Assembly: GCA_023251555.1 (NCBI GenBank)
Contig: JAHEYN010000001.1
Coordinates: forward strand, 75,433 to 139,432
DNA from: Bacteroidota bacterium
GTDB lineage: Bacteria > Bacteroidota > Bacteroidia > AKYH767-A > JAHEYN01
DNA length: 64,000 nt
Direction: 5' to 3'
Shown piece after piece: positions 35,311-64,000 of the stretch. A program made the position numbers and the translations under genes. Numbering within the stretch: the first letter of the stretch is position 1; each line of letters opens with the position of its first letter. The notes beneath the pieces are model-generated. The model did no database searches. It saw nothing but the letters and a program-made list of their open reading frames with translations, and was not told where the DNA came from.

Positions 35311-35390
35311 TTAAATCCTGCCTTCGCATTCCGCTACGGCAGACAAGAGAGTCGGGCCTTGCCCTGAGGTTAATGCCAACTTATAAACAA
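35311..35390 (+). repeat. Palindromic intergenic repeat element, copy a (diverged).
   Basis: It shares the …ctgccttcgcattccgctacggcagacaagaga-gtcgggccttgccctgaggttaatgccaac… consensus with the copies at 51.0, 56.8, 57.7 and 64.0 kb. Confidence 0.7.
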
Positions 35391-36656
35391 TTCTTTGAAG
35401 GCACTGATAATTTTTTCCTGCACTTCATTCCTGAACTTCCCTTTAAGGCTGAAAAGAGGAATAAAACCATCGGCCTCATAGCCTCCTTCCTTAACCTGCC
35501 TGTCGGTGGGAAGATAGAGATGTACCGAGTCTGTATAGCCGCACAAAAGAGTACCTTTTCCGGCGATACCTTTCAGCAAATCCTCGTATTCGATCAGTGG
35601 TTCGGCAGAGATACAGGCTATACTTAACTGGTCAGAAAACTGTACTGCCTGGAAATACAGGTATTTATTGACTGTATTTTCTCCTTCAAAAATTTCAGAA
35701 AGAGGTTTCTTTATGATTGCAGTTTCCATGCGGGAGACTGCAATCTCCGGTGAGTTGACGTTCAGACATTCTATTACAGCGCGGGAAAGGGAAAGTGTCC
35801 ATTCTGCATATATTTTTTCTGTTGAGGCAGGGATCTTCTGCGGTAACAGCAGTAGGCTTTTAAGGTAATCCCATCTAGTCAGCTTTCCAAACCTTGGCCG
35901 TATATCGCCTGCAAATCCCTGCAGGAAGCAAACGGAGATATTTTTTCCCGTGCTGTTGCGAAGTTTAGTTCTCACCGCACCGGGAAAGTCTGCACTCAGG
36001 GTGTTAAATTCGTAAAAGGCTACGGGGTGGCATGCAAAATGCCATATTAATCCAACAGTCTGGCTTTCTCTGTTCTTAAATTCTATTACAGAGCCATTGC
36101 GGTTTTTTTTGCCCAAAGGGGCATAGGCATTTTTATAAGATATGGATGGAAAACGCCTGAGCGACAGGTTAATAATTTTTCTCCGGCGATTAATAGTGTG
36201 ATCTGTATTAAAGTGGTGCAGGTGCATTGTAACGGGTGTTCCCGGCTCGCTTAACACTTGTTCAAGGGTATGAAAAAGTTTTTCTTTTACCGAGAGCAGG
36301 TATTCATTATTTAACTCCCCGAGCATTGGTTTCCCGGCTTCTACCGGAGGGGCAAAATGAGTATGGCTTGCATTAAAAATAAAATCCTCCTCCCTGATAT
36401 TTTCACCATGTTTCCGGTTCAGTTCCCGGATAGCCTCCGTTTTCAATTCATGGCTTGTAAAAAGCGCATCAATGCTTACAATAAATATTTTTCTTTCCTG
36501 GTGGCGGAGCAGAATTACATTGATTTCGAGAGGGTCATTGATACGGTCAAAGGGGGCGTTTCTCACTACCTGATAGCCGGCAAGGTGAACGGGCTTTACA
36601 GGAGTGATGTCAGCGGTAGAACCGGAAAATAAAACCGGACTATTCAGGCTCTCCAT
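35370..36656 (-). CDS. Neutral/alkaline ceramidase-like hydrolase family protein (N-terminal domain pattern).
   Basis: It has GSTADITPVKPVHLAGYQ and NASHTHFAP, which match the conserved G.ADITP…GY and THTHSGP blocks of neutral ceramidases. The last codons lie in the repeat element. Confidence 0.35.
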   Translation of the reverse strand: MESLNSPVLFSGSTADITPVKPVHLAGYQVVRNAPFDRINDPLEINVILLRHQERKIFIVSIDALFTSHELKTEAIRELNRKHGENIREEDFIFNASHTHFAPPVEAGKPMLGELNNEYLLSVKEKLFHTLEQVLSEPGTPVTMHLHHFNTDHTINRRRKIINLSLRRFPSISYKNAYAPLGKKNRNGSVIEFKNRESQTVGLIWHFACHPVAFYEFNTLSADFPGAVRTKLRNSTGKNISVCFLQGFAGDIRPRFGKLTRWDYLKSLLLLPQKIPASTEKIYAEWTLSLSRAVIECLNVNSPEIAVSRMETAIIKKPLSEIFEGENTVNKYLYFQAVQFSDQLSIACISAEPLIEYEDLLKGIAGKGTLLCGYTDSVHLYLPTDRQVKEGGYEADGFIPLFSLKGKFRNEVQEKIISAFKELFISWH

Positions 36657-36657
36657 T

Positions 36658-38166
36658 TCATAAAGGTTTATTTAGACCGCATAACTTTTCAATCTGCGAT
36701 TTCATATACGTGCAATCTGCTATGATTTTTTCATCATCATCCAGGATTTTTCCGGCAGGCTGAGCTATTTTTTTCAGCAGGGCATCGGGCGATGTTATAT
36801 ATTCAATGTAATCCCGGCTGATAAAGTCATAAAAACATTCGTATCCGTTTTTAGTGAGCACTACGCTTGGTACATTAAATGAGAGGGCCTCCATTGCCAC
36901 GGTGGAGTCGAGGGTTACATGCAGGTTTGCTTTTTCAAGTAAAAGATAAAGGTTAACCCGGGAAGATTGATGCACCAGGATATTTTCGGGGAAGGGATAC
37001 CCAAATTCTGTTTTCAGCCAGTCTTCAACTTCGGGGAAATGGGGATGTAATCGTATAATCCAAAGTATTTCACTGCCTGACTTCCTGATAGTATTAATAA
37101 CTACGTTGCTAAAAATAAGCTTGTCATACCCCGGCATATTGTTTAGGGTAATGAGTATCATTTTTGAGGATTTATTAATACTCTCTTTTAGGCTTTGCGG
37201 GAAGGAACAAAGGCTGCGGTTATTTCTGATAAAGCAGAGGTATGGATTTCCGCCAAGGATAGGTTTATGTTTTGATAATGACGCATTCCATTTCTCCAGG
37301 TTTCGTAAGGAGTTCCTGTCCCAAACCCAAAAATAATCGGGTAAAAGCTGATATCCTTCAGGAGGGACATTCAGCCATTTGACGTATGCGAAGTGAGTAT
37401 TGCCATGCACTCCATGCTGGATTTCTATACTTTTTATTTTTAATTTTCCGGCTGCGAATATAGCGGCCATGTTTTTTTCGGAGTAATAAATATCCGTAAA
37501 AAGATGTTCAGGCCGGATCTCCGAAAAGAGTTTCTCGAAAGCTTCCGAATACCGGTAAATGAGTTCTGTTTTCTCGGCACACGCTTCCTCCGGGAAATCA
37601 AACACAATCAATTTTGACGAAAGAAAATCAATGAATTCAGGATACCGGTTTATTGTTTTTTGCCTGAGTGAAGGAAAAGAGAAGAGCAGATTCCGGAACA
37701 ATTCTTTCTCAAGAAATTCGTCTGCATTGAAAACATCTGCCCTTCCCGGCTTTTCAACATCTCCGTCATAGGCAAAAGATTCCATGTAAAAACATTTTCC
37801 GTAACCATGCAACAGGTAACCAATGCTTTCCGTGCAGCGGTTAAAAAATTTTTCATTAATCAGTTCGGATCTGTGGCTGGAAAGTCCGTACAGAATAAAC
37901 CTGGCTGAAAATGGCCTGGATCTTTTTCCCCTGTGCCGGAAGCGTTTTCTGAGAAGCCAGAAAAGGTCGGCATAATGTTTCCTCAGTCTCGAGAGTGGAG
38001 TGCGGTTACCTGTATTTTTCCGCGGGCTCTTTTTCAGATGGTTATAAAGTTCGAGCCTGATAACGGGCCAGGCGTAGAGTTCTTTGTATTTCAGACTGTT
38101 GACATCGAAATTCAACTCAATATCATTGAGGATCCTGATAATTTCCTTTTCATCAACGCTCTGCAT
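36658..38166 (-). CDS. Putative polysaccharide-modifying transferase (TagF/KpsC/KpsS-like GT-B fold); hypothetical.
   Basis: It has IIRLHPHFPE and a C-terminal VTLDSTVAMEALSFNVPSVVL block like CDP-glycerol glycerophosphotransferase and capsule-synthesis families. The match is low-specificity. Confidence 0.3.
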   Translation of the reverse strand: MQSVDEKEIIRILNDIELNFDVNSLKYKELYAWPVIRLELYNHLKKSPRKNTGNRTPLSRLRKHYADLFWLLRKRFRHRGKRSRPFSARFILYGLSSHRSELINEKFFNRCTESIGYLLHGYGKCFYMESFAYDGDVEKPGRADVFNADEFLEKELFRNLLFSFPSLRQKTINRYPEFIDFLSSKLIVFDFPEEACAEKTELIYRYSEAFEKLFSEIRPEHLFTDIYYSEKNMAAIFAAGKLKIKSIEIQHGVHGNTHFAYVKWLNVPPEGYQLLPDYFWVWDRNSLRNLEKWNASLSKHKPILGGNPYLCFIRNNRSLCSFPQSLKESINKSSKMILITLNNMPGYDKLIFSNVVINTIRKSGSEILWIIRLHPHFPEVEDWLKTEFGYPFPENILVHQSSRVNLYLLLEKANLHVTLDSTVAMEALSFNVPSVVLTKNGYECFYDFISRDYIEYITSPDALLKKIAQPAGKILDDDEKIIADCTYMKSQIEKLCGLNKPL

Positions 38167-38193: not shown

Positions 38194-39033
38194 TTATTTT
38201 CCGGGGCACACAAATGTATAGATGGTAAACTTTCCGCTGGGTTCTTTACAGCGTTCAACGGATAGTACTTCATACCCGCATATATTACATAACATGACCA
38301 GGCTTAAGGGCGAATATACATGGTAGTGTCCATAGCCGAAGGCTTCGTTATCGGGCCCATCTTCAAAAAAACTCAATGTATCAGGAAGTTCGATGTACAG
38401 GATACCATTGCCGGCGAGATATTTTTTTACTTCTTTCAGGAATGATACGGGGTCGAAAATATGTTCAAGTACCCGGTTGAGCGTAATCAGACTGAATTTT
38501 CCGGTTGTGCCTACATCGCTGAGATAACCTTTTACCACCCTGGCTTCCGGCATGTGTTTCTGAATATGCGCAGATGCGTGGGGGTCAGGCTCTACCGCTG
38601 TTCCCTGCCATTTTTCAGCTGACAGGAATTTGTACAGGAAAACACCCATCCCTGCGCCGATATCAAGTACTGTATACTGTTTTTCTTTTTGCAGGGGCTG
38701 GTAATTTTCAATGAAAGCATTTATGCGCTTCACTCTTGCATGGTTGTCTGATTTTTCTTCGGGGAGATTAATTACAAAGCTGAATCGTTTCTCAAAAAAC
38801 TCTTCAGGTGTTCCTTCTGCCCCGTAATAAAATCCTTCAGAGTAAACATTTTCATAGTCAGGAGTGTCGTGCAGGTACATCAACCGGCAGAAACTGCATT
38901 CGCTGTAACGTGCAGGGGTTTTACGCCTTGTTTCAGTTATTGCGAACTTGTCTTCGCGCGAAACAGTAAAATCTCTTATTGTTTCTTTAGTGCCGCATAC
39001 AGGGCATGAGGAAACGGGTTTAGTTTCTTTCAT
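38194..39033 (-). CDS. Class I SAM-dependent methyltransferase with an N-terminal Cys4 zinc-ribbon.
   Basis: The ribbon is CPVCG…CSFC. The MTase motif I is VLDIGAGMGVF and the post-I acidic residue is in TAVEPD. Confidence 0.65.
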   Translation of the reverse strand: MKETKPVSSCPVCGTKETIRDFTVSREDKFAITETRRKTPARYSECSFCRLMYLHDTPDYENVYSEGFYYGAEGTPEEFFEKRFSFVINLPEEKSDNHARVKRINAFIENYQPLQKEKQYTVLDIGAGMGVFLYKFLSAEKWQGTAVEPDPHASAHIQKHMPEARVVKGYLSDVGTTGKFSLITLNRVLEHIFDPVSFLKEVKKYLAGNGILYIELPDTLSFFEDGPDNEAFGYGHYHVYSPLSLVMLCNICGYEVLSVERCKEPSGKFTIYTFVCPGK

Positions 39034-39364
39034 CGAGCCATTCTATAAGGGTTTCCCGGTGTTTACGGAGGTAATTTTTAAATGAACCTGTTTTACCATA
39101 TTCCACGAGCATTATAAAATACCTGTTTGTACTGTTTTTTACGAGAGCTGTTTTGTAGCCTTCCTTCATCAGGCGGGAGTTTATAGAAGGAGTTGCATAA
39201 TATCCCCATGATTTAGCCACGATATCATAGTTGGCGCCTTTGCTGCTGCGAAGTGTAATTTGTTCATCAGCCTCTATGGTTATGGATCCGAAATCTCTTA
39301 TAACGACCCTGCCTTTTTTGTCGGGCTTGAATTTTCTTGGACTCCTGAGAATATTCAGCTTCAT
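39020..39364 (-). CDS. Hypothetical protein (114 aa) with no recognisable motif. It is translationally coupled into the operon.
   Basis: It is an ORF only, with a 4-nt gap or overlap to its neighbours. Confidence 0.3.
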   Translation of the reverse strand: MKLNILRSPRKFKPDKKGRVVIRDFGSITIEADEQITLRSSKGANYDIVAKSWGYYATPSINSRLMKEGYKTALVKNSTNRYFIMLVEYGKTGSFKNYLRKHRETLIEWLDERN

Positions 39365-39367
39365 TGT

Positions 39368-40525
39368 TCAGATGGGAGTATTGGAAAACCTGTCGGGAAC
39401 TTTATCTCCTCCAATCCATCCTTCAATATACCATTCCCCGTTTGAATCCTTTTTCCATATATTTTTATTGCGGAATTTTTCCGCAGTTTCCCAGAAACTT
39501 TTTTCAGTAATATTAATTTGCCTGCAGAAGGCGGCAATATATTCCTTAGGCGGCTTCACGCCATCTCTTTCTTTTACCAGCCTGACCGCTTCCTCTCTTG
39601 TCATACGCCCTTTCCTGATTTCATTGGAGGCATTGTCGGTAATCCTGTTGAAGCCGAATTTAAGCCACTTGAAATAGTGATGAATGACAATATTCATGCA
39701 GTCCAGGTCGGCATAATCATAAAGCCCCATGACAGGCCCCTTCTCTCTTACTTTAAACCCATAGCGCACTGCCACTTCCATGTTTGTTTTTGCATCCCAT
39801 GGAATATAATACCCAAGGAAGATGGGATGATACCCGATACTCTCCAGTTCATTATCCTCTGGATAAATCATAGATTGAATTTCAAAAGCAGAAAGGTTAT
39901 CGCTGACCCAGTCTTCCCACGATCGCCCTTTCAGGATATCATGTTTTTTCAAGAAATCCCTGTTAAGCCTTGCTACTTCAAAATCTGATTCTGAGCCCCC
40001 GTATTCCATGAGCGGGTTTTCTCCCCATATTATTAATGGAATTCCAAGTTTTACAGCAAGGTTTGGGATGATACTGTATATGGCAAGGTGATCTACAAGT
40101 GAGCAATCTCCAAGTTCGTTGAAAGCTTTTTTTGTGAGTTTGTTTATTCCCACAGGATTGGGAGAGAAATCTACGTGGTCAACTCCTATGTTTCTGAGAG
40201 CCTGGAGGTTTTCCTCTCCTCTCGGGGTTCGTGCAAGTGTTCTGAAAGTGATACAGAGCGGATTCATACGGTACTCGTTTTTTACCATATGAACCTGATA
40301 GGTGCTGTCCTTTCCGCCGCTTACGGGTACAATACAGTCATATTTTCCCGGTATATTTAAGCGATACTTGTCAAATATTTCACCGAGAGACTTTTTTCTT
40401 GCGTCCCAGTCAATGGATGCCATCTTTTTTTCCGATGCAATACATGCGCTGCAGATACCATTTTCATTAAATTCAATGTGCGGACGGGAGTCAGGGGTTA
40501 CGCACCGTTTGCAATACTTTAGCAT
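39368..40525 (-). CDS. N-acetyl sugar amidotransferase (PP-loop ATP pyrophosphatase; WbuX/PseA-like).
   Basis: It has an N-terminal CxxC…CxxC ribbon (CKRCVTPDS…CSAC) and a PP-loop SGGKDS. Confidence 0.65.
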   Translation of the reverse strand: MLKYCKRCVTPDSRPHIEFNENGICSACIASEKKMASIDWDARKKSLGEIFDKYRLNIPGKYDCIVPVSGGKDSTYQVHMVKNEYRMNPLCITFRTLARTPRGEENLQALRNIGVDHVDFSPNPVGINKLTKKAFNELGDCSLVDHLAIYSIIPNLAVKLGIPLIIWGENPLMEYGGSESDFEVARLNRDFLKKHDILKGRSWEDWVSDNLSAFEIQSMIYPEDNELESIGYHPIFLGYYIPWDAKTNMEVAVRYGFKVREKGPVMGLYDYADLDCMNIVIHHYFKWLKFGFNRITDNASNEIRKGRMTREEAVRLVKERDGVKPPKEYIAAFCRQINITEKSFWETAEKFRNKNIWKKDSNGEWYIEGWIGGDKVPDRFSNTPI

Positions 40526-41418
40526 AAATCAGTTGTTTTTTTGCAGTATAAAATTACTGTCCTTCCGAGCCCGAGCCCGGAAAGAACTTTATAAAATAAT
40601 CTTCTTACAGGGTTAAGATGATTTCTGTACAAAAAGATTTCAAATTTGATCCTGATATTATGAGCGCTCCTGCCTTTGGCTTTATGGCGGATAAAATTAT
40701 ATCCCAGCAGGAGGAGGGCATAGATGGGGAATGTAGTTGCCTGAGCAGAGATCTTAAAGCCATTCCGCCGCATCAGCTTTTTAAGGCTCCTGAAGTTAAA
40801 GTAATTGATGTGATCAGGGATAGCCAGCCATGACTTTTTTTCACGAAGCAGGAAAACCCCGAGGCGCTGGGTAAACTCGTAGTCATTTGGAACCTCTGCG
40901 TAAAGAATACCTCCCTTAACCAGGATCCGGTAGCATTCTTCTATAATTTCAATGGGGTTCAGAACATGTTCCAGTACATTCTTCAGGTGGATAACATCAA
41001 ATTTCCTGTTGTTGTTCCTGATAAAGTCATTGAAGGTGGTGTTTAGTATATCCAGGTTATTTTTTCTCCCGTGTTCCGCAGCAGAGTCCGACGGTTCTAT
41101 ACCAATGCAGCTCCAGCCTTTCTTTACAGCATAGCTCATAAACTCTCCGGATCCGCACCCGATATCAAGAAGGTTTTTTCCGGGGGCATATTTTTCAAAC
41201 ATTCTTATACGGTCCTCATATGCAATTTCCCAGAAAAGGCGGTCCCTTTGGTCTTCCTCGATGTAAGATGGTTTATGTGTATCATAGTACTGGGTCCTGT
41301 AGAATTCATCCAGGACTTTCTGGTCGGGAATCGGATGCAGATGTTTAAACCCGCAAACATCACACTCAAGAATCCCGTACCCGCTTACTGTGTCTGTTAT
41401 GTTCCCTTTGTGGTTCAA
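40519..41418 (-). CDS. Class I SAM-dependent methyltransferase with an N-terminal CxxC motif.
   Basis: It has ECDVCGF, then LLDIGCGSGEF (motif I) and IGIEPSD. Confidence 0.65.
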   Translation of the reverse strand: MNHKGNITDTVSGYGILECDVCGFKHLHPIPDQKVLDEFYRTQYYDTHKPSYIEEDQRDRLFWEIAYEDRIRMFEKYAPGKNLLDIGCGSGEFMSYAVKKGWSCIGIEPSDSAAEHGRKNNLDILNTTFNDFIRNNNRKFDVIHLKNVLEHVLNPIEIIEECYRILVKGGILYAEVPNDYEFTQRLGVFLLREKKSWLAIPDHINYFNFRSLKKLMRRNGFKISAQATTFPIYALLLLGYNFIRHKAKGRSAHNIRIKFEIFLYRNHLNPVRRLFYKVLSGLGLGRTVILYCKKTTDLC

Positions 41419-43235
41419 TTCTGCTCCAGGAATATTTTAGCGTTGAGGAAGTTAAAAACAAATTTACTATAACTATTGGAATCGGTCATTCCCTGCAGCA
41501 GTTTCAGCAGTTTTTCCCTGTCCACATAATCAAAAATCCTGGAGGGCTCCATCAGGTAATCCATATTTTTTGAAGATTTGAGGTCAATGATGGAATTAAT
41601 AGATGCATTGAATCCTTTTTTCTGTTTGTCCAGCCGGACAAAGTCATTCAGGATACCTTTCATAGCCTCCCTCAGCAGGTACTTGCCAAGACCCTTCTGA
41701 ATCATATGCTCAGTGGGGATGGAGTATGCAAACCTGAAAAGCCGCGAGTCAAGGTAGGGGCAGCGGTTCTCTATAGAAAACATCATGGCGTTGAGGTCGT
41801 CTTCATGCAGGATAAGTCTTACACCTTCATGAAACAACTCGTTTAGCATGCGGCTTCTGAGCATTGAGGAAGAAGCATATTTTGTTTCATAAAACTCTTC
41901 ATAAAAAGGAATTTTAAGGATGGACCTGAATTCCTCATTGTTCAGGTAAATATGTTTGCGGTTATTCGGATCGCTGAAATATAATTCCGGATTTTTAAGA
42001 TATGGATTTCTTACAATTGTACCAATATTTTTATGCCAGTCAGACAGAAATTCCCTGTATCGCGGATGGTTCCGCATTTCATAAAGATAGAGGTTGAAAT
42101 GGTCGTAATAGCCTGTAAAAAGCTCATCCGCAGCATGTCCGGAAAAAATCACTTTATAGCCATTCCTGGCTACCGCCTCGGTGATAAAAGAGTGCACAAA
42201 AAAAGTAATAGTGGCAAGCGGAACGTCATGGTATTCTATAAGATCTGTCAGGCGCTCAAGCGTATTTTCATGAGACACATGAATGATGGTATTCTTACAG
42301 TTGATGTCTTTAATAGTATGTTGAATGTTTTCGTATTCGTTATACCGTTCATCATTATCAATAATTGAAAAGGTATGAATATTGAGGTTGAAAATTTTTG
42401 CGGCGATGGAAGCAAGAGACGAGGAATCAATTCCTCCGCTCAGGCAGAAAGCAATAGGCACATCACTTCTGAGGCGGATTTTCAGGCTTTCCGTAAGATG
42501 GTGTTTAATCCCCTCGATGGCATCTTCTGATGACATGGGAACCGGCATATAGCGGGGGAACCAATACCGTGTGATCTTTTTTTCCAGTTCCGGTCCTATG
42601 ATCAGATTAGAGGCATAGGGGACTTCGCTGATCTCATTGAAAAAAGTCTCATCATTCTTATAGAGTGATTTATATCCATTGGTAAGATAGCGCAGCACCT
42701 GGTTATCATTTACAGTGAGTCTCTTATTGCAGAGGGAACGTACTGCTTTTATTTCCGAACCAAAATAAAAACCGTCGGAAGTTTCAAGATAATAAAACGG
42801 TTTCTCTGCAAACCGGTCACGGGAAAGGAACAAATTCTGTTTTCTGCTGTCGTAAATTGCAAAGCTCCACATGCCTTCAAAATAGTCCACGCAATTTTCG
42901 CCATAGAGGGCATAATAATGCATGAGGACTTCGGTATCGGACGAAGTGGAAAGGCGGATACCTTTTTTTACCAGTTCCTCCCGCAGTTCGAGGTAGTTGT
43001 ATATCTCCCCGTTATACACAATGGTGTTGTCTCCTATGGTGAGTGGCTGGTTGGCACGCTTGTCGAGGTCAATAATGCTGAGGCGGGAATGAAGCAGGTA
43101 GATATGACAGTCTTTTACTGAATTCTTTGTGTAGGAACGGGCATCAGGGCCTCGTTTTCCCATCAGTGAAAGCGTTCGCTCAAGGATATTTTCCTCAATA
43201 ACCTGTTTGCCGATATAACCTGCTATTCCGCACAT
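41415..43235 (-). CDS. asnB: Asparagine synthetase (glutamine-hydrolysing) homolog, likely a glycan amidotransferase (WbpS-like) in this context.
   Basis: It has the N-terminal MCGIAGYIG (Ntn Cys2), a PP-loop SGGIDSS and a length of 606 aa. Confidence 0.85.
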   Translation of the reverse strand: MCGIAGYIGKQVIEENILERTLSLMGKRGPDARSYTKNSVKDCHIYLLHSRLSIIDLDKRANQPLTIGDNTIVYNGEIYNYLELREELVKKGIRLSTSSDTEVLMHYYALYGENCVDYFEGMWSFAIYDSRKQNLFLSRDRFAEKPFYYLETSDGFYFGSEIKAVRSLCNKRLTVNDNQVLRYLTNGYKSLYKNDETFFNEISEVPYASNLIIGPELEKKITRYWFPRYMPVPMSSEDAIEGIKHHLTESLKIRLRSDVPIAFCLSGGIDSSSLASIAAKIFNLNIHTFSIIDNDERYNEYENIQHTIKDINCKNTIIHVSHENTLERLTDLIEYHDVPLATITFFVHSFITEAVARNGYKVIFSGHAADELFTGYYDHFNLYLYEMRNHPRYREFLSDWHKNIGTIVRNPYLKNPELYFSDPNNRKHIYLNNEEFRSILKIPFYEEFYETKYASSSMLRSRMLNELFHEGVRLILHEDDLNAMMFSIENRCPYLDSRLFRFAYSIPTEHMIQKGLGKYLLREAMKGILNDFVRLDKQKKGFNASINSIIDLKSSKNMDYLMEPSRIFDYVDREKLLKLLQGMTDSNSYSKFVFNFLNAKIFLEQN

Positions 43236-43243
43236 AGATTTAT

Positions 43244-44257
43244 TTAATTGAAATGATTCATACTTACCGGTTCTCCTGCTGCTATGCCTTTTGTGATTTT
43301 CCTGCCGATGATGTTATTTTCCATTCCTGCGGGGAGTTCTCCTTTTATTCTCAGCCAGGTAATGTCGTTCGTGGAAACAATATGGCCGGGCATGAGATTT
43401 ATTTTTGCCACGATAAACCGGCGGATGTTATTCTGGAGTTCCTTCTTTTCGGCATCCCGGGGTTCTTTTATCCCTGTTCCCATCAGGATTTCAATGTCAC
43501 GAATGGTTTTTACCATACTTTTCATTTCAGCGGGATCCGCCGAAAGACGATGGTCGCGGAAGTCGGAATAATTTTTATCCAGCGTAAAGTGCTTTTCGAT
43601 AATTCTTGCGCCCATTGAAACGGCAGCCGTTACGGCAGTTGTTCCCATGGTATGGTCAGAATACCCTATGGTACACCCGAATTCTTTCTGAAGGTGCCGG
43701 ATGGCATTCAGGTTTGCATCTTCCGGGAGGGTGGGGTAGCTTGTAACACAGTGTAACACGGCTAATTCTCCGTTTATATTCCTGTTGTTCCAGATAGTTT
43801 CGATATAATTTTTTGAATGCCTGATTTCATTTATATCTACCAGTCCTGACGAAATAATAACAGGTTTTCCTGTCCCTGCAACAAATTGCAGAAGAGGGAA
43901 AAAATTGTTATCCGCAGATGCAATTTTGAAAGCAGGAACGATTTTATTCAGGAACTCTGCGCTTTCCAGGTCAAAAGGAGTGGAAAGAAATAACACACCC
44001 GCTTTTTGGGCCACATGGTAAAGCTTCATAAAAACCTCCTGGCTGAGCTCAAATGATTTCAGTCTCTCAAACCTGGCAGTATTGTTCCTGTCAATGAAAA
44101 GTTCTGTTTTGAATGTCTGGAACTTTACCGCATCTGCCCCGGCCGCAGCAGCTTCCAGAATCATTTTCTCGGCAGTGTCAGGATTGCCTTCATGATTATT
44201 GCCTATCTCGGCGATAACCAGTACATTCTTATCAGTATTAAATCTGTTGATCCGCAT
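43244..44257 (-). CDS. NeuB-family nonulosonic-acid synthase homolog (sialic/pseudaminic/legionaminic acid synthase family) with a C-terminal SAF domain.
   Basis: It has IAEIGNNHEGN, KFQTF, FKIASADNNF and YSDHTMG, then a C-terminal SAF-like segment. Confidence 0.8.
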   Translation of the reverse strand: MRINRFNTDKNVLVIAEIGNNHEGNPDTAEKMILEAAAAGADAVKFQTFKTELFIDRNNTARFERLKSFELSQEVFMKLYHVAQKAGVLFLSTPFDLESAEFLNKIVPAFKIASADNNFFPLLQFVAGTGKPVIISSGLVDINEIRHSKNYIETIWNNRNINGELAVLHCVTSYPTLPEDANLNAIRHLQKEFGCTIGYSDHTMGTTAVTAAVSMGARIIEKHFTLDKNYSDFRDHRLSADPAEMKSMVKTIRDIEILMGTGIKEPRDAEKKELQNNIRRFIVAKINLMPGHIVSTNDITWLRIKGELPAGMENNIIGRKITKGIAAGEPVSMNHFN

Positions 44258-44260
44258 AGG

Positions 44261-55730: not shown

Positions 55731-56203
55731 ATCAGTAAATTTGTGTGTGTGTGGGCTTTTTATCCTTCTGTTTCAGTAACGGATTCTTTCTTGTTTATTC
55801 TTTCAAACAATTCGCTTACAATGTTGCGTTGGTTCTCTCCTATTTTGCGATATTCTTGATACGCTACAATATAATTTTAAAGCTGCTTTCGGTTATGAAA
55901 TGCAACATACTTTTTTGCTTGATGAATCAATACCATAACTGTAAGTTTCAAGTCGTCAGTTGTATAGCTATACTCCGATTGGTCAAAGTGGTTGAAGTTA
56001 CGAATAAAGCGGTGGCTGGTCGTTAAAAAGATATGTTTTTTGTCTTGTGTCAAGTTGATTAAAAGCTCGTCAGTTTCGGGTTAGCAGTGTTGTCCCAATA
56101 AAGTTGCATGAAACAGGAAACACAAGGCTTCACAAACGATACGTTGTGTATTAAAAATAAATAATTACCTTTGACATGCGAGAAAAAACCCTTCGTGAGA
56201 ATT

Positions 56204-56326
56204 ATGAAAAAGTTTGTTTATACCCTTGTTGCCCTGTTTGTTATGACAGTTTTCTTTTCCTGCAAGAGCCAGGAAAAATGTCCTGCTTACGGCAAGGTGA
56301 ATGTGAAGACTGAAAAACTAAGCTGA
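56204..56326 (+). CDS. Small putative lipoprotein (40 aa), below the ORF-track length cutoff.
   Basis: It reads atg…MKKFVYTLVALFVMTVFFSCKSQEKCPAYGKVNVKTEKLS*. It has a signal peptide with lipobox FFSC. It may be spurious. Confidence 0.25.
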   Translation: MKKFVYTLVALFVMTVFFSCKSQEKCPAYGKVNVKTEKLS

Positions 56327-56734
56327 GTAGTTAAAGATCACTGTTTGCTTCAGTTCCGGGTGCAGGCTTTTCGCTACCGGGCAGTTTACAGCCGCGATTT
56401 TCAGCATTTTCTTCTGCTCTTCCGAGTATATATTTTCCGGCATATCAAATTCCACAATTATTTCTGAAACCCTTCTTGGGTTGGATTCCATTATCTTGGT
56501 TACTTTCAGTTTCATCCCGTCAATGCTGAAATTATTTTTGCCGGCATTGATACCCATGATGGTTGCCATACAGTTCCCGAGCGAGGTTGCAAGGAGGTCA
56601 GTGGGGGAGAATGCTTCTCCTTTTCCCTGGTTGTCGAGGGGGGCATCGGTGATGATCTCCTGTCCGGACCTTACATGAGTGGCTTTTGTCCGGAGTCCGC
56701 CGGTGTATATTATACTTGAAGTTTCCATAGATGC
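56318..56734 (-). CDS. OsmC/Ohr-family peroxiredoxin-like protein. The ORF-track start at 56806 is probably an over-extension into the repeat element; the likely start is METSSIIYTGG.
   Basis: It has OsmC-like blocks FSPTDLLATSLGNCMATIMGI and AAVNCPVAKSL with two conserved Cys. Confidence 0.6.
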   Translation of the reverse strand, partial: ASMETSSIIYTGGLRTKATHVRSGQEIITDAPLDNQGKGEAFSPTDLLATSLGNCMATIMGINAGKNNFSIDGMKLKVTKIMESNPRRVSEIIVEFDMPENIYSEEQKKMLKIAAVNCPVAKSLHPELKQTVIFNYSA

Positions 56735-56756
56735 AAAGATATGAAACCGGAAGTTT

Positions 56757-56873
56757 TTTAATCCGCCTTCGCGTTCCGCTACGGCGGACGGGAAGGCCTG
56801 GTTCAATTCCCCGCAGCTTGCTGCGGAAATCTGAGTCCGGAACTTGTTCCGGGGTTAAGACCAATTTATTTAA
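56757..56873 (+). repeat. Palindromic intergenic repeat element, copy c, with a ~35-bp internal insertion carrying an extra hairpin.
   Basis: ttaatccgccttcgcgttccgctacggcggacgggaaggcc-[tggttcaattccccgcagcttgctgcggaaatctgag]-tccggaacttgttccggggttaagaccaatttatt. Confidence 0.7.
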
Positions 56874-56957
56874 GATTTGTCGTGTGTTTAAGAAATTACA
56901 ATTACTACAAGATCATTTCAACAAAAACGTTCAGTTTATAGGGGGTTAGTACAATTG

Positions 56958-57284
56958 TTACGCAATTAGCAAACTAATACGTCTGCCAAGTCCGAATTCA
57001 AAAATGCGGTACAGTGTGGATAATTGAATATCACACTTTCCATTTTCGATTCTGGAGATATAACTTTTTTTTGTTCCCAACTTTTCAGCCAGTTCGTCTT
57101 GCGTCATGTGAGCTGCTTTACGTCCTTCTCTGAGCATTTCGCTTATCACAAAATACTGTGCTTTCTCCTCGAACTTGTCGCGTTTGCTTGTCCCAATTGC
57201 ACCGTATTTAATATTTAGTAATTCGTCTACGGAGCGGGCATCTTTTATATTCTTTGTTTTCATGATCTTATTTTTTTGTTGCAA
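56958..57284 (-). CDS. XRE-family HTH DNA-binding protein, a putative HigA-like antitoxin. The likely start is at 57263.
   Basis: It has the HTH MTQDELAEKLGTKKSYISRIENGK. It sits immediately downstream of the RelE/HigB-like gene and overlaps it slightly. Confidence 0.6.
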   Translation of the reverse strand: MQQKNKIMKTKNIKDARSVDELLNIKYGAIGTSKRDKFEEKAQYFVISEMLREGRKAAHMTQDELAEKLGTKKSYISRIENGKCDIQLSTLYRIFEFGLGRRISLLIA

Positions 57285-57609
57285 AGTATTCTTTTTTTAA
57301 TTTTTCAGCCAAATCAATTTCTTGTTTTGGCGTCTTTTGTGTTTTCTTTTGAAATCCATTAAATAATACAACCAAATTACCTTTGTCGAAGCAACAGAAT
57401 ATTCTAAAGATATTGCTTCCGTATTCAATCCGGATTTCATAAATCCCATCAGTCCCGGTCATGTGGTCGAGAAATTTTTTGGGAACCCTTTCCACTGTAC
57501 GGAGTAAAATGAACACGTAATCTATCTTTTCCTGAACACCTTTCGGTTGAGCCGCATAAAACCCGGTGAAATAGTGTCTGTAGAAAATAATAGTTCTTTC
57601 GGTTTTCAC
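57268..57609 (-). CDS. RelE/ParE-superfamily toxin, HigB/Gp49-like. This is the upstream gene of the two-gene TA module.
   Basis: It is 113 aa with IYEIRIEYGSNIFRIFCCFDKGNLVVLFNGFQKKTQKTP, a pattern typical of phage-Gp49/HigB-like toxins. It has the toxin-first gene order. Confidence 0.55.
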   Translation of the reverse strand: MKTERTIIFYRHYFTGFYAAQPKGVQEKIDYVFILLRTVERVPKKFLDHMTGTDGIYEIRIEYGSNIFRIFCCFDKGNLVVLFNGFQKKTQKTPKQEIDLAEKLKKEYFATKK

Positions 57610-57650
57610 AATACAAAGTTAACTTTATAGTTAACACAATACAAATTTAT

Positions 57651-57726
57651 TTTAATCCGCCGTAGCGGAACGCTACGGCGGACGAGAGGGTCCGGGGCTT
57701 GCCCCGGGGTTAATACCAATTTATTT
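57651..57726 (+). repeat. Palindromic intergenic repeat element, copy d, with the best-preserved palindromes.
   Basis: ttaatccgccgtagcggaacgctacggcggacgagagggtccggggcttgccccggggttaataccaatttatt. This gives two perfect hairpins, ccgccgtagcg/cgctacggcgg and ccgggg/ccccgg. Confidence 0.8.
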
Positions 57727-57788
57727 GAAAATTGCCGTGTGTCCTGTCTTTTTCTCTTCTCCCTGAAAATATGTAATATTGTATAACG

Positions 57789-58532
57789 ATGAAGGCCCTG
57801 TATTCCATTGCATTTTTTCTTTTTTCCGTTTCACTTTATGCCCAGCAGCAGAGCGAGCTTTATGAAGAAGACGTGCCTCTCATCTATCATCACGAAATGA
57901 GCATCGGGTGGAATGTTCATTCCAACGGGATGGGTGCTGTGTTCAGGAAGGGGAAACAAAAGACAGTGAGCCGGAAACATTACTATGAGGTGGAAGCGGT
58001 GGGTATGCAGCATCCGAAGGAATACAAGTTCACGTATTATGAAGACGGCGGGAAGTTTGTGTTCGGCAAGCTGAATTCGCTTATGCTTGTCCGCACAGGC
58101 CTGGGTGTGCAGCGCATTATCTGCGGGAAGGGGGACAGGCTGGGGGTAGAGGTACGCTTTAATAACTTTGCCGGGATTTCCTGGGGTTTTGCCAAGCCGG
58201 TTTACCTGTATGTGCTTGTTCCTGCAAAGGATGGATCGCAAAAAAGAGAGCCCGAGATAAGAAAATACGACCCGTACAGATACAATGTTGATGACATCTA
58301 TGCCCAGGCTGATTATAAGTACGGGCTCAGCGAGCTGTCTGTATACCCTGGCCTTTATGCAAAGACAGGTTTCAGCTTTGACTTTGCTTCTTTTGATACA
58401 GGGATAAAGGGTCTCGAAACCGGTGTGGTTATTGATGCCTTCCCGAAAGTTATACCTGTCATGGCTTTCACGAGGAATCCGCAGGTATATTTAAGTTTTT
58501 ATTTTACGGTGTACTTCGGAACGAAGTGGTAA
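57789..58532 (+). CDS. Hypothetical secreted protein, possibly an outer-membrane beta-barrel.
   Basis: It has a signal peptide (…SVSLYAQQ), alternating hydrophobic beta-strand-like segments and a C-terminal aromatic (…YFGTKW). Confidence 0.4.
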
Positions 58533-60883: not shown

Positions 60884-61798
60884 TTATTTGTCCGCTATTA
60901 CTAATTTTTTTGTCGCGATTAATTGGTTGTCCTGTGTCACGTGAACGAAATACAGTCCGCCTGCGAGATTGTCACGCGAGAAAGTAACTGTTTGCCCGCT
61001 GATGTTTTTTATTTGTTTTACTGTCTGCCCGAAACAATTGTCTACCGTGATAGTTGCGTTATTTAAAGTCATGTATGTCTGCAAAGTTGTCTGTATGGAA
61101 AAAGGGTTGGGATAGATTGCTAATGCTCGGTTGTCGTTTTGTTCTGCGACATTTAGAGGAGGAGATTGGCAATAGCCCACTACAGAATCCATATAAAGAT
61201 TTTGACTATTTTGTGTATAGCAATTAAGCTTAGAACCATGTTCTACGCCCTTGTCCATGGGGAGGAGTAGTCCATATGAGCTACCAATGCCTTCAATTAA
61301 AATTTCTATGCTGTCAATTCCGGCAATATGGAATCGCTTCCGATAAGTTGCCCCAATCAAAATTGAATCAATCGAATAAATTGTATTCCAAGGATAGAGC
61401 GGATTAACATACCATCGAGGAATTGTGTCCCCTATTGAAAGATTAAAATCGTATAGAAGAGTGTCCGCTGTCGCAGATGGCAACCTAAGAAATATTTGTC
61501 TCTGAGAAGTATCTTGTCGAAATGCACCAACATATCCAAAAGATGTTGCACCGTCATTTTGTCTGTAAGTGTATTCTTGAATTTTTTTGTAAGTATAAAT
61601 TCCAATTATTGTGTCGCCTGTAATCCAGTTCCAAATATTTACTTGTATGCCAACATAAGGTGGACAAGGGCACCAACCTTTCCCTGAAAACCAAGTTGCA
61701 TTACTATCTGGGAATGGATGATACTTTGCTGTCTGACTGAACGAAACAGTGAAGGTTAGAGAAACTGTCAAGCCGAGAAGAACTTTTTTCATTGACAT
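60884..61798 (-). CDS. Secreted hypothetical protein with a T9SS C-terminal sorting domain.
   Basis: It has a signal peptide and a C-terminal LAIYPNPFS…GGLYFVHV…KLVIAD CTD pattern. Confidence 0.55.
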   Translation of the reverse strand: MSMKKVLLGLTVSLTFTVSFSQTAKYHPFPDSNATWFSGKGWCPCPPYVGIQVNIWNWITGDTIIGIYTYKKIQEYTYRQNDGATSFGYVGAFRQDTSQRQIFLRLPSATADTLLYDFNLSIGDTIPRWYVNPLYPWNTIYSIDSILIGATYRKRFHIAGIDSIEILIEGIGSSYGLLLPMDKGVEHGSKLNCYTQNSQNLYMDSVVGYCQSPPLNVAEQNDNRALAIYPNPFSIQTTLQTYMTLNNATITVDNCFGQTVKQIKNISGQTVTFSRDNLAGGLYFVHVTQDNQLIATKKLVIADK

Positions 61799-62801: not shown

Positions 62802-63091
62802 AAATGAAGAACAATCTTTTCCCGTTACTGATGGCTGCACTTTTTACCTGTGTATTATTTTCCTGCATGCCTGACAATGGAGCCGGGAGTGGCGCAGGTG
62901 ACAGCCTTGGAATAGAAAATCCTGCTGTCGAAGAGCCTTTTGAAATAGACTACAATAAGGTTTATGCCTGCCCTGATCATACGGATCAGCACAGCGTTTC
63001 ACCCGGAAAATGTCCTGTATGCGGGAAGGATATGAAACTTGTAAAACCTGCTGAGGGAAAAGGCAGCAGCGATTCATCATCGGCAAAATAA
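62798..63091 (+). CDS. Lipoprotein with a heavy-metal-binding domain (HMBD) of the type found at the N-terminus of copper/silver efflux adaptor proteins.
   Basis: It has lipobox LFSCM and YACPDHTDQHSVSPGKCPVCGKDM, which matches the YxCPMHP…GKCPxCGMxL HMBD signature. It overlaps the DoxX gene by 4 nt. Confidence 0.45.
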   Translation: MKMKNNLFPLLMAALFTCVLFSCMPDNGAGSGAGDSLGIENPAVEEPFEIDYNKVYACPDHTDQHSVSPGKCPVCGKDMKLVKPAEGKGSSDSSSAK

Positions 63092-63095
63092 GAAT

Positions 63096-64000
63096 ATGAA
63101 GAGGATACTTGTCCCCATCGATTTTTCTTCCAATGCAGGCGATGCGCTCCGCTTTGCGTCGGAGATTGCACATCGTCTGGGTCTTGGCATATTTTTATTT
63201 CATGCATACCATGAAGCCTTGCAGGACCCCGATGTTTCCGAGGCTGCCATCGGCAGGATCCGGATCGGCGAAAAGAGAAAAATATATAAACGTCTTCATA
63301 AGATCCGGGAGGGCATACTTGCGGAGTTCATGCGGAAAAAATCCGATATAAAATGCTGGGTGGAAGGTGGAATAGGGCTTGCCGCAGAAGAGATTCTTGA
63401 TTTTGCAGGGAGCAGAAAAGTACCTGTGATTGTTATGGGTGCAAGGGGAGAAAGCGCGGCAGCCCGTTTTTTTTTCGGGAGTGTATCAACCAGGGTTGCC
63501 GCCGGAGCGGCTTGTCCTGTAATGGTTATTCCGCCGGGGTACAGGGCAGGGAAAAAAATAAAAATGCTTTTTGCCGTGGGCGACGTCCTCCCCCCGGCGG
63601 GCATTATACGGCATTTTTTTGATTTTGCAGACAGGTTAGATGCCGCGGCCGAATTTGTTCATGTGTGCAGGCCGGGAGAAGAAAATGCTGCGGCCCGGGT
63701 AGAGGGTGCTTTCAGGGAAATGCCGGAGAGGCGTTCGAACACCCGCCTGAGAATAATCAAAAGCCCGGATGTGGCGGGCGGACTTAACAAATACGCTGTT
63801 AAGTGCAGGGCAGGAATGTTAATTATGTATGCCCGTCACGAGGCACTCCTGAAAAAAATACTGAACCGGAGTGTGAGCACTTCCATGATATACCATACAA
63901 CTATCCCTCTTCTTATTTATCCTGCTGATTTCAGGGAAGAGAACAAGCGGAAATATTCAATCCGCCGTAGCGGAACACGAAGGTCCGGGGCTTACTCCGG
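63096..64000 (+). CDS. Universal stress protein (tandem UspA domains), 3' partial. The frame is open to the window end, and the ORF track omits it because it has no stop in the window.
   Basis: My own translation from the ATG at 63096 gives MKRILVPIDFSSNAGDALRFASEIAHRLG…VIVMGARGES… for the first Usp domain and …KMLFAVGDV… for the second. About 301 codons have no stop. Confidence 0.55.
   Translation, partial: MKRILVPIDFSSNAGDALRFASEIAHRLGLGIFLFHAYHEALQDPDVSEAAIGRIRIGEKRKIYKRLHKIREGILAEFMRKKSDIKCWVEGGIGLAAEEILDFAGSRKVPVIVMGARGESAAARFFFGSVSTRVAAGAACPVMVIPPGYRAGKKIKMLFAVGDVLPPAGIIRHFFDFADRLDAAAEFVHVCRPGEENAAARVEGAFREMPERRSNTRLRIIKSPDVAGGLNKYAVKCRAGMLIMYARHEALLKKILNRSVSTSMIYHTTIPLLIYPADFREENKRKYSIRRSGTRRSGAYS
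63958..64000 (+). repeat. Palindromic repeat element, copy e, truncated by the window end.
   Basis: tcaatccgccgtagcggaacacgaaggtccggggcttactccgg. Confidence 0.6.

Follow-up and report, generated by a model that had tools for sequence, protein, structure and literature searches.

Repeat copies in the window and their gene contexts

The window, the whole 64-kb stretch of DNA that was analyzed, belongs to a 476,781-bp contig of an uncultured Bacteroidota bacterium (GCA_023251555.1, JAHEYN010000001.1). It holds five copies (a to e) of a hairpin-forming non-coding repeat of 76-117 nt, all on the plus strand. A profile run against all 64 kb returned only these five matches, with E-values from 3e-31 to 1e-12 for copies a-d and a weak match for the truncated copy e, while the chance expectation calculated from shuffles was zero. 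The positions and strand given in a preliminary description of this DNA were thus confirmed for all five copies. They are spaced by 0.9-15.7 kb and lie within 29 kb, with none found by the profile search in the remaining 35 kb (1-35 kb). The copies and their parts are as follows:

35311-35390, plus strand: copy a, short form, more degenerate than any other copy (profile E 1e-12; 44.5 bits)
~35317-35344, plus strand: hairpin-1-like segment of copy a
51024-51100, plus strand: copy b, short form (77 bits)
51030-51054, plus strand: hairpin 1 of copy b, CCGCCTTTGCG TTC CGCTACGGCGG
51065-51080, plus strand: hairpin 3 of copy b; the tail ends at 51098
56757-56873, plus strand: copy c, full-length (long) form, 117 nt, with extra similarity to 56887 (E 3e-31; 133 bits)
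56763-56787, plus strand: hairpin 1 of copy c
~56800-56808, plus strand: internal GGTTCAATT motif of copy c
56811-56826, plus strand: hairpin 2 of copy c
56836-56852, plus strand: hairpin 3 of copy c, followed by the tail GGTTAAGACCAATTTATT
57651-57742, plus strand: copy d, short form, tail to 57725 and c-like 3' similarity to 57742 (79 bits)
57656-57682, plus strand: hairpin 1 of copy d, a perfect 12-bp palindrome with the loop GAA
57692-57707, plus strand: hairpin 3 of copy d
63956-64000, plus strand: copy e, cut by the window end (weak profile match; 93% identical to copy d)

The gene contexts agree with those first described: copies a and b are located between convergent genes, copy c between co-directional genes and copy d in a divergent region. 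The 3' tail of copy a overlaps the end of a ceramidase-like gene (35370-36656, minus strand), for which it encodes the last codons (...ISWH) and the stop, and copy b occupies almost all of the 93 nt that separate purB from VanY, two convergent genes. Copy c lies antisense between the OsmC and HTH_3 genes and is indeed included in an over-extended OsmC ORF (162 aa, TTG start), the source record calling an OsmC of 136 aa. Copy d separates a Gp49 toxin gene from a 247-aa ORF, and the Usp ORF (start 63096) does continue through copy e, stop-free up to position 64000, so that gene 3' ends are overlapped by both copies a and e. Relative to the adjacent genes the orientation of the copies is mixed, with downstream sense positions, antisense positions within co-directional gene pairs, and upstream positions.

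The common orientation of the five copies is real, but a run of this kind is not significant (about 1 in 16), and in other loci the orientation of copies does not track GC skew. Local duplication was ruled out by the flanks, which are unrelated save for a ~27-nt 3' stretch common to copies c and d; the extra 3' similarity of ~14 nt in copy c is likewise common only to copy d. In an independent assembly of the same strain, contigs end within copies b and d.

Structure of the unit and polarity of its variants

The full-length unit of ~117 nt consists, in order, of TTTAAT, hairpin 1, a GAGAAGG segment, GGTTNAATT, hairpin 2, hairpin 3, and the tail GGTTAA(A)TACC(A/C)NTTTATT. Hairpin 1, whose sequence is invariant, has an imperfect stem of ~11-12 bp (CCGCCTTCGCG-nnn-CGCTACGGCGG, 25-27 nt) with two conserved mismatches, and the GAGAAGG segment is complementary to its 5' arm and can pair back. 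Hairpin 3, with the sequence CCRGGGCTTGCCCYGG, is unrelated to hairpin 1. The linkers GGTTNAATTCC, GGAAAT, GGGGTTAA and ACCAnTTTATT are conserved across lineages. In a derivative of 76 nt, GGTTNAATT and hairpin 2 are missing.

Copy d had initially been taken as the consensus, with a ~35-bp insertion in copy c and point changes in the first stem of copies a-c. Sequence comparison reverses this polarity. Since the same three hairpins are present in six copies from a Roseivirgaceae metagenome-assembled genome (MAG) and in one metagenome copy, the 117-nt copy c represents the full-length form; the supposed insertion is ancestral sequence, and copies a, b and d carry a single common 41-nt deletion with which the visible part of copy e agrees. 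The alleged point changes are the conserved ancestral state, from which copies d and e depart: in this subfamily the stem of hairpin 1 was 'corrected' to a perfect palindrome and the loop inverted. Copy e has the derived 5' arm and loop CCGCCGTAGCGGAAC seen in copy d, and ~10 nt of its hairpin 1 3' arm are deleted. The existence of subfamilies with common derived changes (the 41-nt deletion and the corrected stem) implies that variants were copied after they arose.

Distribution in other genomes

The Roseivirgaceae MAG contains six copies with the three-hairpin plan, a single one on each of six contigs, and related copies are carried by the metagenome loci L090 and L068. At least two genomes therefore carry the unit, at many intergenic sites that are unrelated to one another, and the initial proposal of a dispersed family holds. 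Identities are 84-92% between window and MAG copies and 79-93% among the window copies. Because the similarity between the window and the MAG equals that within the window, strong functional constraint or recent transfer fits these data at least as well as lineage-specific bursts.

To hairpin 1 we applied a pattern that left its mismatch positions free. Scanning of 129 loci (9 genome, 120 metagenome) gave ~130 matches with variable loops, the exact TTC being found in 49, and the hairpin was unchanged in metagenome contigs of 36-70% G+C. Its flanking base covaries (T-A 25, C-G 17, T-G 10, C-A 2). In seven soil loci (S1), a covarying closing stem has a GTAG at its foot, 14-15 nt upstream, and a second copy is inverted, so that the locus folds as one long REPIN-like hairpin; full inverted doublets were found in the S1 loci and in L066. 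Acidobacteria-like contigs contain long, GTAG-headed REP hairpins in which the identical hairpin-1 sequence makes up the distal part. No recurrent transposase was observed near 60 hairpin-1 loci, and no Y1 transposase emerged when 169 ORFs in the vicinity of such loci were put through a crude HUH/Y screen.

Comparison with known repeat classes

These sequences constitute a new family of an already known kind of small bacterial repeat. The original label, REP/MITE-like, stands as far as it denotes a real structured, dispersed intergenic repeat family, but not in the strict sense of REP (GT[AG]G head) or MITE (terminal inverted repeats, target-site duplication). No hairpin of the window family has a GT[AG]G head 0-2 nt 5' of its foot: on the top strand TTTAAT comes before the foot of hairpin 1 and GGGT before that of hairpin 3, on the bottom strand the feet follow CTCGT and TTAACC, and GTAG is confined to the inside of the corrected stem in copies d and e.

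The closest known systems are the REP, REPIN and BIME repeats, which RAYT (TnpA-REP) proteins, tyrosine HUH transposases, mobilize (Nunvar 2010 PMC2817692; Bertels & Rainey 2011 PMC3116915; Di Nocera 2013 PMC3733652; Quentin 2018 PMC6006769). Like REPs, the window family is extragenic and multi-copy, is formed by G+C-rich imperfect palindromes in an A/T-richer genome, keeps its stem mismatches, prefers gene ends and convergent gaps, can overlap gene ends, and has subfamilies within one genome. The link to REPINs is the exact hairpin 1 within GTAG-headed inverted-doublet long hairpins of other metagenomic lineages. In contrast to a REP, which is a single palindrome of 20-40 nt, a size that hairpin 1 alone would fit, the repeated unit of 76-117 nt combines two or three different hairpins with conserved linkers. 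Furthermore, the window copies are headless direct-orientation singletons rather than inverted doublets, of which the window has none (the GAGAAGG after hairpin 1 is a remnant only), and no RAYT, which genomes with canonical REPs carry as a single-copy gene between inverted REPs, was seen among the ORFs scanned. Finally, REPs are normally species-specific, whereas this family is 84-92% conserved between distant hosts and its hairpin 1 is identical across phyla.

PATEs, the miniature derivatives of IS200/IS605 elements, similarly lack terminal inverted repeats and target-site duplications and have subterminal hairpins near both ends. The constant A/T motif at the boundaries of the window family (TTTAAT / TTTATT) could serve as a cleavage or target site, and if the DNA were recognized in single-stranded form, as in PATEs, selection for hairpins would be explained. 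Unlike in PATEs, the left and right hairpins are unrelated to each other, neither a Y1 transposase nor TnpB lies nearby, and a replication-related orientation bias is unsupported outside the window. The MITE-like composites (Neisseria Correia/NEMIS, enterobacterial ERIC/IRU, pneumococcal BOX/RUP, Stenotrophomonas SMAG, and Rickettsia RPE) are likewise ~100 nt long, structured and intergenic, are co-transcribed with neighbors, occur in long and short variants, and sometimes extend reading frames. However, terminal inverted repeats and duplications of TA or the like characterize those whose mobilization is known, none of the composites has sequence in common with the window family, and no Rfam model matches it.

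Altogether, we favor the interpretation that the five sequences are members of a REP/REPIN/BIME-class family of interspersed repeats that are structured and non-autonomous, with a probability of about 0.6.

Folding, covariation and possible RNA function

On either strand, and whether computed for RNA or for DNA, folding energies were well below those of shuffles (z -3 to -5.6; -5.0 for copy d). In the covariation analysis 85.6% of cells were paired and six pairs were altered on both sides; the score of 0.117 compares with 0.071 in shuffles (0 of 500 reached 0.117) and a maximum of 0.072 in slid controls. Three of the six pairs of hairpin 3 are compensatory, and compensatory changes between lineages preserve the pairing of hairpins 2 and 3.

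A functional RNA would likewise show covarying stems together with conserved single-stranded linkers, a pattern that counts against transposition. The copies might then be a multi-copy conserved structured RNA, either cis-acting in UTRs or a small RNA, retained by selection for an RNA function such as binding of proteins, protection of 3' ends or insulating operons from each other. We regard this as rather unlikely, although several observations point to it, including a between-host identity of up to 84-92% while nothing known exceeds 71% identity to the host purB, and the presence of one copy each of the 5' module in genomes that are small or unrelated (L002, L008). The top strand has G-T wobbles, with a conserved T-G in the closing stem, an excess of T-G over C-A (10 vs 2) at the base of hairpin 1 and GU cells in hairpins 2 and 3, as well as C(UACG)G and G(CUUG)C, both stable tetraloop types. 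However, the bottom strand folds about as well, the lack of sequence conservation upstream of the copies indicates no promoter of their own, and the mixed orientation relative to flanking genes is equally unfavorable. The copies also decay freely, copy a being degenerate and copy e lacking half of hairpin 1, and multiplication of the 41-nt deletion variant would be odd under strong selection. Rfam gave no match at the gathering threshold in the window, nor for the repeat in 20 related loci, and only chance-level matches, none of them credible, at E up to 10; ARAGORN detected no tRNA or tmRNA.

The suggested role in transcription termination or mRNA stabilization is not supported. Copies b, c and d were not among the terminator-like sites on either strand of the scanned region (50800-58000), and the nearest T-rich stretch, TTTATT, begins 12-14 nt past hairpin 3. 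Given that no T-run follows any stem of these copies on either strand and that orientation relative to neighboring genes is mixed, such a role is not established.

Boundary motifs and possible recombination sites

It appears improbable that the family arose as a classical MITE, by internal deletion from a DDE-type IS whose transposase acted on TTTAATCC / GGGTTAAA and inserted at TTTA or TA targets. Near the two ends these 8-nt motifs can pair and their outermost pair covaries (A-T in copy b, T-A in the MAG, T-G in copy c), every copy has TTTA at both boundaries, and the variants of different length, with their conserved ends, look like deletion derivatives. Yet the motifs are not terminal inverted repeats, as 10-12 nt separate the 3' arm from the conserved 3' end, and in the long form an internal GGTTNAA is an alternative partner of the 5' arm. 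The flanks outside TTTAAT...TTTATT differ between the two ends of every copy and those of 11 copies contain no matching direct repeat, though the constant TTTA could hide a fixed-target duplication. The only DDE element seen in the window, an IS3-family element at ~10.9-12.2 kb, has unrelated ends, and no longer element with the ends of the repeat was seen among 131 loci.

The attC sites of integrons have the core-site consensus sequences RYYYAAC (R'') and GTTRRRY (R') and form arrays of short cassettes beside intI. A reading of the copies as integron-like or Xer-like recombination sites bracketing cassettes, consistent with the shared orientation of all five, the position of the Gp49/HTH toxin-antitoxin pair (56958-57609) between direct copies c and d with their extra 3' similarity, and the fit of the MAG 3' motif GTTAAAT to R', is already largely refuted and highly improbable. 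The 5' end TTTAATCC is not RYYYAAC, and the window copies have GTTAATA or GTTAAGA. Between the copies, which are 0.9-15.7 kb apart, lie housekeeping genes and operons of either orientation, among them purB, lipA and a sugar-nucleotide cluster. No integrase or recombinase was present among the 27 window ORFs compared with Pfam, and the MAG copies are single and on separate contigs.

Proposed mobilization and consequences for the host

Under the preferred interpretation as interspersed REP-class repeats, the family would have spread by copying at the DNA level, probably by a trans-supplied enzyme that recognizes the hairpins in single-stranded DNA. The likeliest candidate would be an HUH/Y1 transposase of the RAYT/IS200 type, as suggested by hairpin 1 inside the GTAG-headed REP hairpins of Acidobacteria-like contigs and by Bacteroidota transposases with atypical REP-like hairpins. 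Such hairpins are described for the Bacteroidetes TnpA-Y1 subclasses 2.4 and 2.6 (PMC6006769), and REP dimers nested within host palindromes as well as G-T pairs in REP stems are also documented (PMC3733652). Against an IS200/IS605-type origin counts the dissimilarity of hairpins 1 and 3, since the left- and right-end hairpins of IS200/IS605 elements resemble each other. The Pfam scan of 27 window ORFs revealed no Y1/RAYT or other cognate transposase, the sole transposase seen in the window being that of the unrelated IS3-family element. As no empty site was found, we infer insertion rather than demonstrate it.

New copies would land at A/T-rich, TTTA-like sites at gene ends. Once inserted, the G+C-rich hairpins would be transcribed with the neighboring genes and would probably act as 3'-end barriers, an action that may be a side effect of their presence rather than the reason for their existence.

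Repeat copies and their genomic setting

The window holds five copies of one repeat:

Copy a, 35311-35390, +: short form, degenerate, at the end of the ceramidase-like gene
Copy b, 51024-51100, +: short form, between the purB and VanY genes
Copy c, 56757-56873, +: full-length form
Copy d, 57651-57726, +: short form with a perfect first palindrome
Copy e, 63956-64000, +: cut by the window end

Direct reading of these positions bears out the repeat family proposed in the preliminary description. A profile built from the copies and run over the whole 64 kb matched a to d at E-values of 3e-31 to 1e-12 and the truncated copy e only weakly; it revealed no further copies in the 64 kb and none in the first 35 kb. 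All five matches fell on the + strand, in the single orientation first described, and pattern searches allowing up to three mismatches had zero expectation in shuffled sequences. The flanks of the copies are unrelated, except that c and d stay similar for a further ~27 nt on the 3' side (family D10); this answers the objection that the likeness could stem from a local duplication. In an independent assembly of the same strain, short contigs break off within copy b and begin again within copy d, which fits multi-copy repeats, where assemblers usually break contigs. The window itself belongs to a contig of 476,781 bp in ENA assembly ERZ27297570, and SRR14366766 contains the same strain.

Several copies reach into genes in the manner first described. 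The ceramidase-like gene takes its last codons (…ISWH) and its stop from copy a, at a place where its homologues have variable tails. The 162-aa ORF that starts at TTG and runs across copy c is an over-extension of the 136-aa OsmC gene, and the Usp ORF from 63096 enters copy e with no stop encountered. The convergent purB and VanY genes are 93 nt apart, and copy b takes up nearly all of this gap. The stretch separating copies a and b holds a long co-directional sugar-nucleotide/aminotransferase cluster (38194-49323, - strand; DegT/DnrJ/EryC1 and epimerases/dehydratases) that probably serves surface polysaccharide.

Copies c and d, in direct orientation, bracket a toxin-antitoxin pair:

56757-56887, +: copy c with adjoining sequence
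56958-57609, -: Gp49 (HigB-like toxin) / HTH_3 (XRE antitoxin) pair
~57641-57648, -: Bacteroidota-type -7 box (TAAATTTG), abutting copy d
57651-57742, +: copy d with adjoining sequence

The extra 3' similarity of c and d (TTTRARRATTKBCGTGTGT) is absent from the other copies. This arrangement might reflect a cassette-like insertion or recombination between the repeats.

A replication-linked orientation was set aside: five of five copies pointing the same way has a two-sided chance of ~1 in 16, and GC skew on the element strand is +0.05 to +0.08 at the window copies and of mixed sign at ten loci outside the window, where repeat orientation does not follow it. A fixed link to the direction of transcription was likewise rejected, since copies in the window and in an uncultured Roseivirgaceae MAG take various positions: downstream of genes in sense orientation, antisense between co-directional ones, or upstream where genes diverge.

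Full-length form and derived states

A scan for AATCCGCCNNNGCGNNNCGCTACGGCGG over 185,579 species-representative genomes (one genome per species) returned nine loci, six of which are separate contigs of this MAG. The long three-hairpin layout of copy c was found in all six MAG loci and in metagenome locus L090. Copy c is thus the full-length form (117 nt) and does not carry the insertion formerly ascribed to it; it runs from TTTAAT through hairpin 1, a GAGAAGG segment, the GGTTNAATT motif and hairpins 2 and 3 to the tail. The same 41-nt deletion, which removes the GGTTNAATT motif and hairpin 2, is common to a, b and d, and the visible part of e looks like this short form.

The first stem of a to c (CCGCCTTYGCR TTC CGCTACGGCGG) is the form present in every out-group, and the perfect palindrome of d (CCGCCGTAGCG GAA CGCTACGGCGG) is a derived state. 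This reverses the earlier view of d as a near-perfect consensus from which a to c differed by point changes. In d, the 5' arm is the reverse complement of the 3' arm and the loop that of the ancestral loop; copy e has this 5' arm and loop as well. Template switching within a quasi-palindrome yields such an arm and loop and may have produced the stem of d. With two derived states, each common to several dispersed copies, the variants must have been copied after they arose.

Conserved secondary structure

Folding set the intact copies b, c and d far apart from shuffled sequence, with z from -2.6 to -5.6 on the + strand; the excess over shuffles holds for RNA or DNA and for either strand. Copy a is degenerate and its folding is not distinct from shuffles. 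Covariation was scored on an alignment of 11 copies, with a structure composed of hairpins 1, 2 and 3 and a short closing stem. Paired cells amounted to 85.6%, with both partners altered in six pairs. The covariation score was 0.117 vs 0.071 for column shuffles (0 of 500 reached 0.117), while slid partners gave at most 0.072. Most of the signal came from hairpin 3, in which three of six pairs are compensatory:

Hairpin 3 arms in three sources
Copy c: CCGGAAC/GTTCCGG
MAG: CCAGGGC/GCCCTGG
L090: CCAGAGC/GCTCTGG

Hairpin 2 changes from CCGCAGC/GCTGCGG to CCGGAGC/GCTCCGG; both hairpins are maintained by compensatory change. Hairpin 1 is invariant and therefore uninformative on pairing within the window family. 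Linkers between the stems are conserved across lineages. The 5' TTTAATCC has two pairing options, either with the internal GGTTNAA, as suggested by RNAalifold and by folding the long form as DNA and as RNA, or with the terminal GGGTTAAA, the sole option in the short form. In the more diverged locus L068, the 5' flank has become AATCAG and the internal partner CTTGATT, two compatible changes that slightly favour the internal pairing.

Relatives and host

Relatives of the repeat comprise the MAG copies, L090 and L068, the last of which retains hairpin 1, the GGAAA-TGAGTC linker and the tail ATACCATTGATT. Identity is 84-92% between window and MAG copies and 79-93% among the window copies themselves; MAG copies are 85-97% alike, four of the six at 94-97%. 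L002 (binned as Patescibacteria) and L008 (binned as Ignavibacteriaceae) each have one occurrence of the 5' module without the rest (TTTAATCC, hairpin 1, ACRAGAA). Covariance model R1 found no new full-length members in 390 kb of sequence, and the MAG loci and the window have no genes in common.

The host is a member of a Bacteroidota lineage with type-9 secretion sorting domains and is without a close sequenced relative. The best match of its purB product among 5.8 billion proteins is 70-71% identical; for the ceramidase-like protein the best match reaches 37%. Three window copies fit the scan pattern and none was returned from the 185,579 genomes, so the host is absent from that set. Proteins with sorting domains are encoded at several places in the window:

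4070-7027: Por_Secre_tail protein
7628-10659: three tandem paralogues (323-325 aa) with a type-9 secretion C-terminal sorting domain, period ~1.02-1.04 kb, 62-94% nucleotide identity
59442-60788: Por_Secre_tail protein
60884-61798: Por_Secre_tail protein

Hairpin 1 outside the family

Hairpin 1 (CCGCC-TTC-GCG / CGC-TAC-GGCGG) contains a T.C mismatch, a T-A pair and a C.T mismatch, and with its foot bases reads T/C-CCGCC-TTC-GCG-nnn-CGC-TAC-GGCGG-A/G. A metagenome scan for CCGCCNNNGCGNNNCGCTACGGCGG gave at least 120 loci, many of which reflect chance or coding sequence in DNA of high G+C. Exactly TTC stands at the three free 5'-arm positions in 49 of the ~130 matches listed (129 loci, of which the genome scan gave 9 and the metagenome scan 120), where chance would give 1 in 64. 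Among these occurrences the 22 stem bases and the two pyrimidine-pyrimidine mismatches are constant, the loop varies freely (TTC, AAA, AGA, CAG, GAA and others), and the flanking bases covary (T-A 25, C-G 17, T-G 10 and C-A 2 among the matches listed). The sites are non-coding, and their contigs range from 36 to 70% G+C; some of these are assigned to Bacteroidota, Ignavibacteria, Patescibacteria and Verrucomicrobiota, others being Acidobacteria-like or Alphaproteobacteria-like. Neither 2.9 million viral contigs nor the REP tables of PMC6006769 contained hairpin 1, and a literature search for its sequence gave unrelated primer matches only.

Hairpin 1 typically sits within a closing stem that differs by family, of 12 bp in the eight-locus family S2 and of 13 bp in L094 and L110. 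Two metagenome families are built on it:

S1, soil metagenome: L018, L037, L044, L050, L087, L101, L105 (also L012, L032)
S2, high G+C, at least 110 nt conserved: L014, L028, L034, L083, L106, L112, L115, L119

In S1, a single base separates hairpin 1 from an inverted complementary version that follows it, and a covarying stem encloses the whole; in seven loci GTAG stands 14-15 nt upstream, where this closing stem has its foot. The minimum-energy fold is one long bulged hairpin (e.g. -91.6 kcal/mol in L105), and the anatomy is that of a GTAG-headed REP doublet (REPIN). S1 has no Rfam match, and its contigs carry Acidobacteria-type MacB/FtsX permeases. L066 has an inverted doublet with a 45-nt spacer inside CCTTAAC…GGTTAACG. 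The segment after hairpin 1 in the window family (CGAGAAGG) is a remnant of the 5' arm complement; L090 has a perfect CGCGAAG there. In S2, hairpin 1 lies atop a 12-bp stem (GCCTCCCGTGGC / GCCACGGGGAGGC, bulge GCAAGCAAAG); several copies occur per sample, and many contigs end at S2.

Other settings include tRNA genes and tandem arrays. At L051 (127-229, Alphaproteobacteria-like contig) hairpin 1 begins one base past the CCA end of a tRNA-Pro(TGG) gene. At L036 (376-552, low G+C) a 13-nt duplicate (TCCGCGCATAGCT) of the tRNA-Lys(TTT) 5' end precedes hairpin 1, with the gene ~70 nt downstream, and the locus resembles a ~115-nt insertion that duplicated the 5' end of the tRNA gene. Direct tandem copies, each with its own repeated flank, stand 293 nt apart in L085 (144-461) and 74 nt apart in L120 (1719-1817), a head-to-tail arrangement unusual for REPs. 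Hairpin 1 could be a cross-phylum module with the Bacteroidota repeat as one of many carriers, either a loop-targeting interphylum mobile unit or the ligand of one widely conserved protein; we consider this doubtful.

Class of the repeat and proposed mechanism

We read the repeat as a non-autonomous structured element of the REP/REPIN/BIME class, multiplied by DNA-level copying that needs its hairpins, with a probability of about 0.6. It has multiple dispersed copies in at least two genomes, forms subfamilies set by shared derived changes and overlaps gene ends, and GTAG-headed REPIN-like hairpins elsewhere contain its hairpin 1 sequence as their distal part. Host palindromes with REP dimers nested in them have been described (PMC3733652). 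In Bacteroidetes, HUH/Y1 transposase genes of subclasses 2.4 and 2.6 occur together with atypical hairpins that have no GTAG head (PMC6006769). The copying enzyme may tentatively be placed among HUH/Y1 transposases of RAYT/IS200 type, acting on single-stranded DNA; this part carries about half the weight of the class assignment. Such an enzyme would copy the repeat through single-stranded DNA, and new copies would insert at TTTA-like sites; TTTA is constant at both boundaries in 11 copies. Transcribed with their neighbours, the hairpins could serve as 3'-end barriers, for example copy b between purB and VanY.

The only transposase seen in the window belongs to an unrelated IS3-family element, whose ends are unlike the repeat and which was rejected as its parent; none of the 27 window ORFs scanned against Pfam is a Y1 transposase. 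This element lies in a foreign-looking stretch of low G+C (29-36%, ~8-16 kb):

~10,860-12,160: IS3-family element, with a short upstream ORF and an rve-integrase ORF (11150-12157)
14,783-15,082: 300-nt fragment of its 3' end, 98% identical, direct orientation, 3 kb downstream

Genes for a LanC-like protein and an S41 peptidase lie between the element and its fragment. Near hairpin-1 loci, no transposase-type gene family recurred when 1,673 ORFs were clustered, the clusters being widespread paralogous families (Gfo/Idh/MocA oxidoreductases, MacB/FtsX permeases) and the translated repeat itself; a crude HUH/Y motif screen of ORFs near these loci was empty.

The main rival to DNA-level copying, a conserved structured RNA element, would account for linkers that stay conserved, G-T wobbles on the top strand, loops of UACG and CUUG type and the high identity between hosts. 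However, the repeat has no promoter and occurs in mixed orientation, its copies decay freely and a deletion variant has spread, and we regard an RNA element as unlikely. Rfam gave no match at gathering score for the window and 20 related loci, nor a credible one at E up to 10 around c and d.

The remaining candidates were rejected. The window family has no GT[AG]G before any hairpin foot and is not a canonical REP; its unit is also three to five times longer. A classical MITE is contradicted by an inverted pair that is not terminal and by the lack of target-site duplication in 11 copies. No canonical intrinsic terminator was recognized on either strand at copies b, c and d (scan of 50800-58000), and the terminator role first suggested is not upheld. 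Copy b has a cloverleaf-like fold ending in ACCA, yet ARAGORN reported no tRNA or tmRNA and the CCA is not conserved (ACCC in the MAG). Phage or plasmid origin (0 of 2.9 million viral contigs for hairpin 1, 0 plasmid matches for copy c) and an attC site were also discarded.

Significance

Small structured repeats account for assembly breaks, ORF extension or truncation, RNA 3'-end structures and recombination sites in bacterial genomes, and to our knowledge few have been described in Bacteroidota. The present family is previously undescribed and of a familiar kind that would not surprise a specialist. It explains contig breaks in this lineage and the mis-called OsmC start and ceramidase-like and Usp tails, and its 117-nt three-hairpin consensus is a well-defined query toward finding the copying enzyme.

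Two observations were unexpected, namely whole-unit identity of 84-92% between hosts that are not close relatives, and one 25-nt imperfect hairpin identical in contigs of several phyla and partly inside GTAG-headed REPIN-like hairpins. This conservation may stem from one recognition system that moved horizontally, from a host factor in common or from another cause. REPs are generally regarded as specific to one species (PMC6006769); if one conserved recognition system were responsible, the conservation would contradict that view and would offer a way to study the movement of such elements between lineages.
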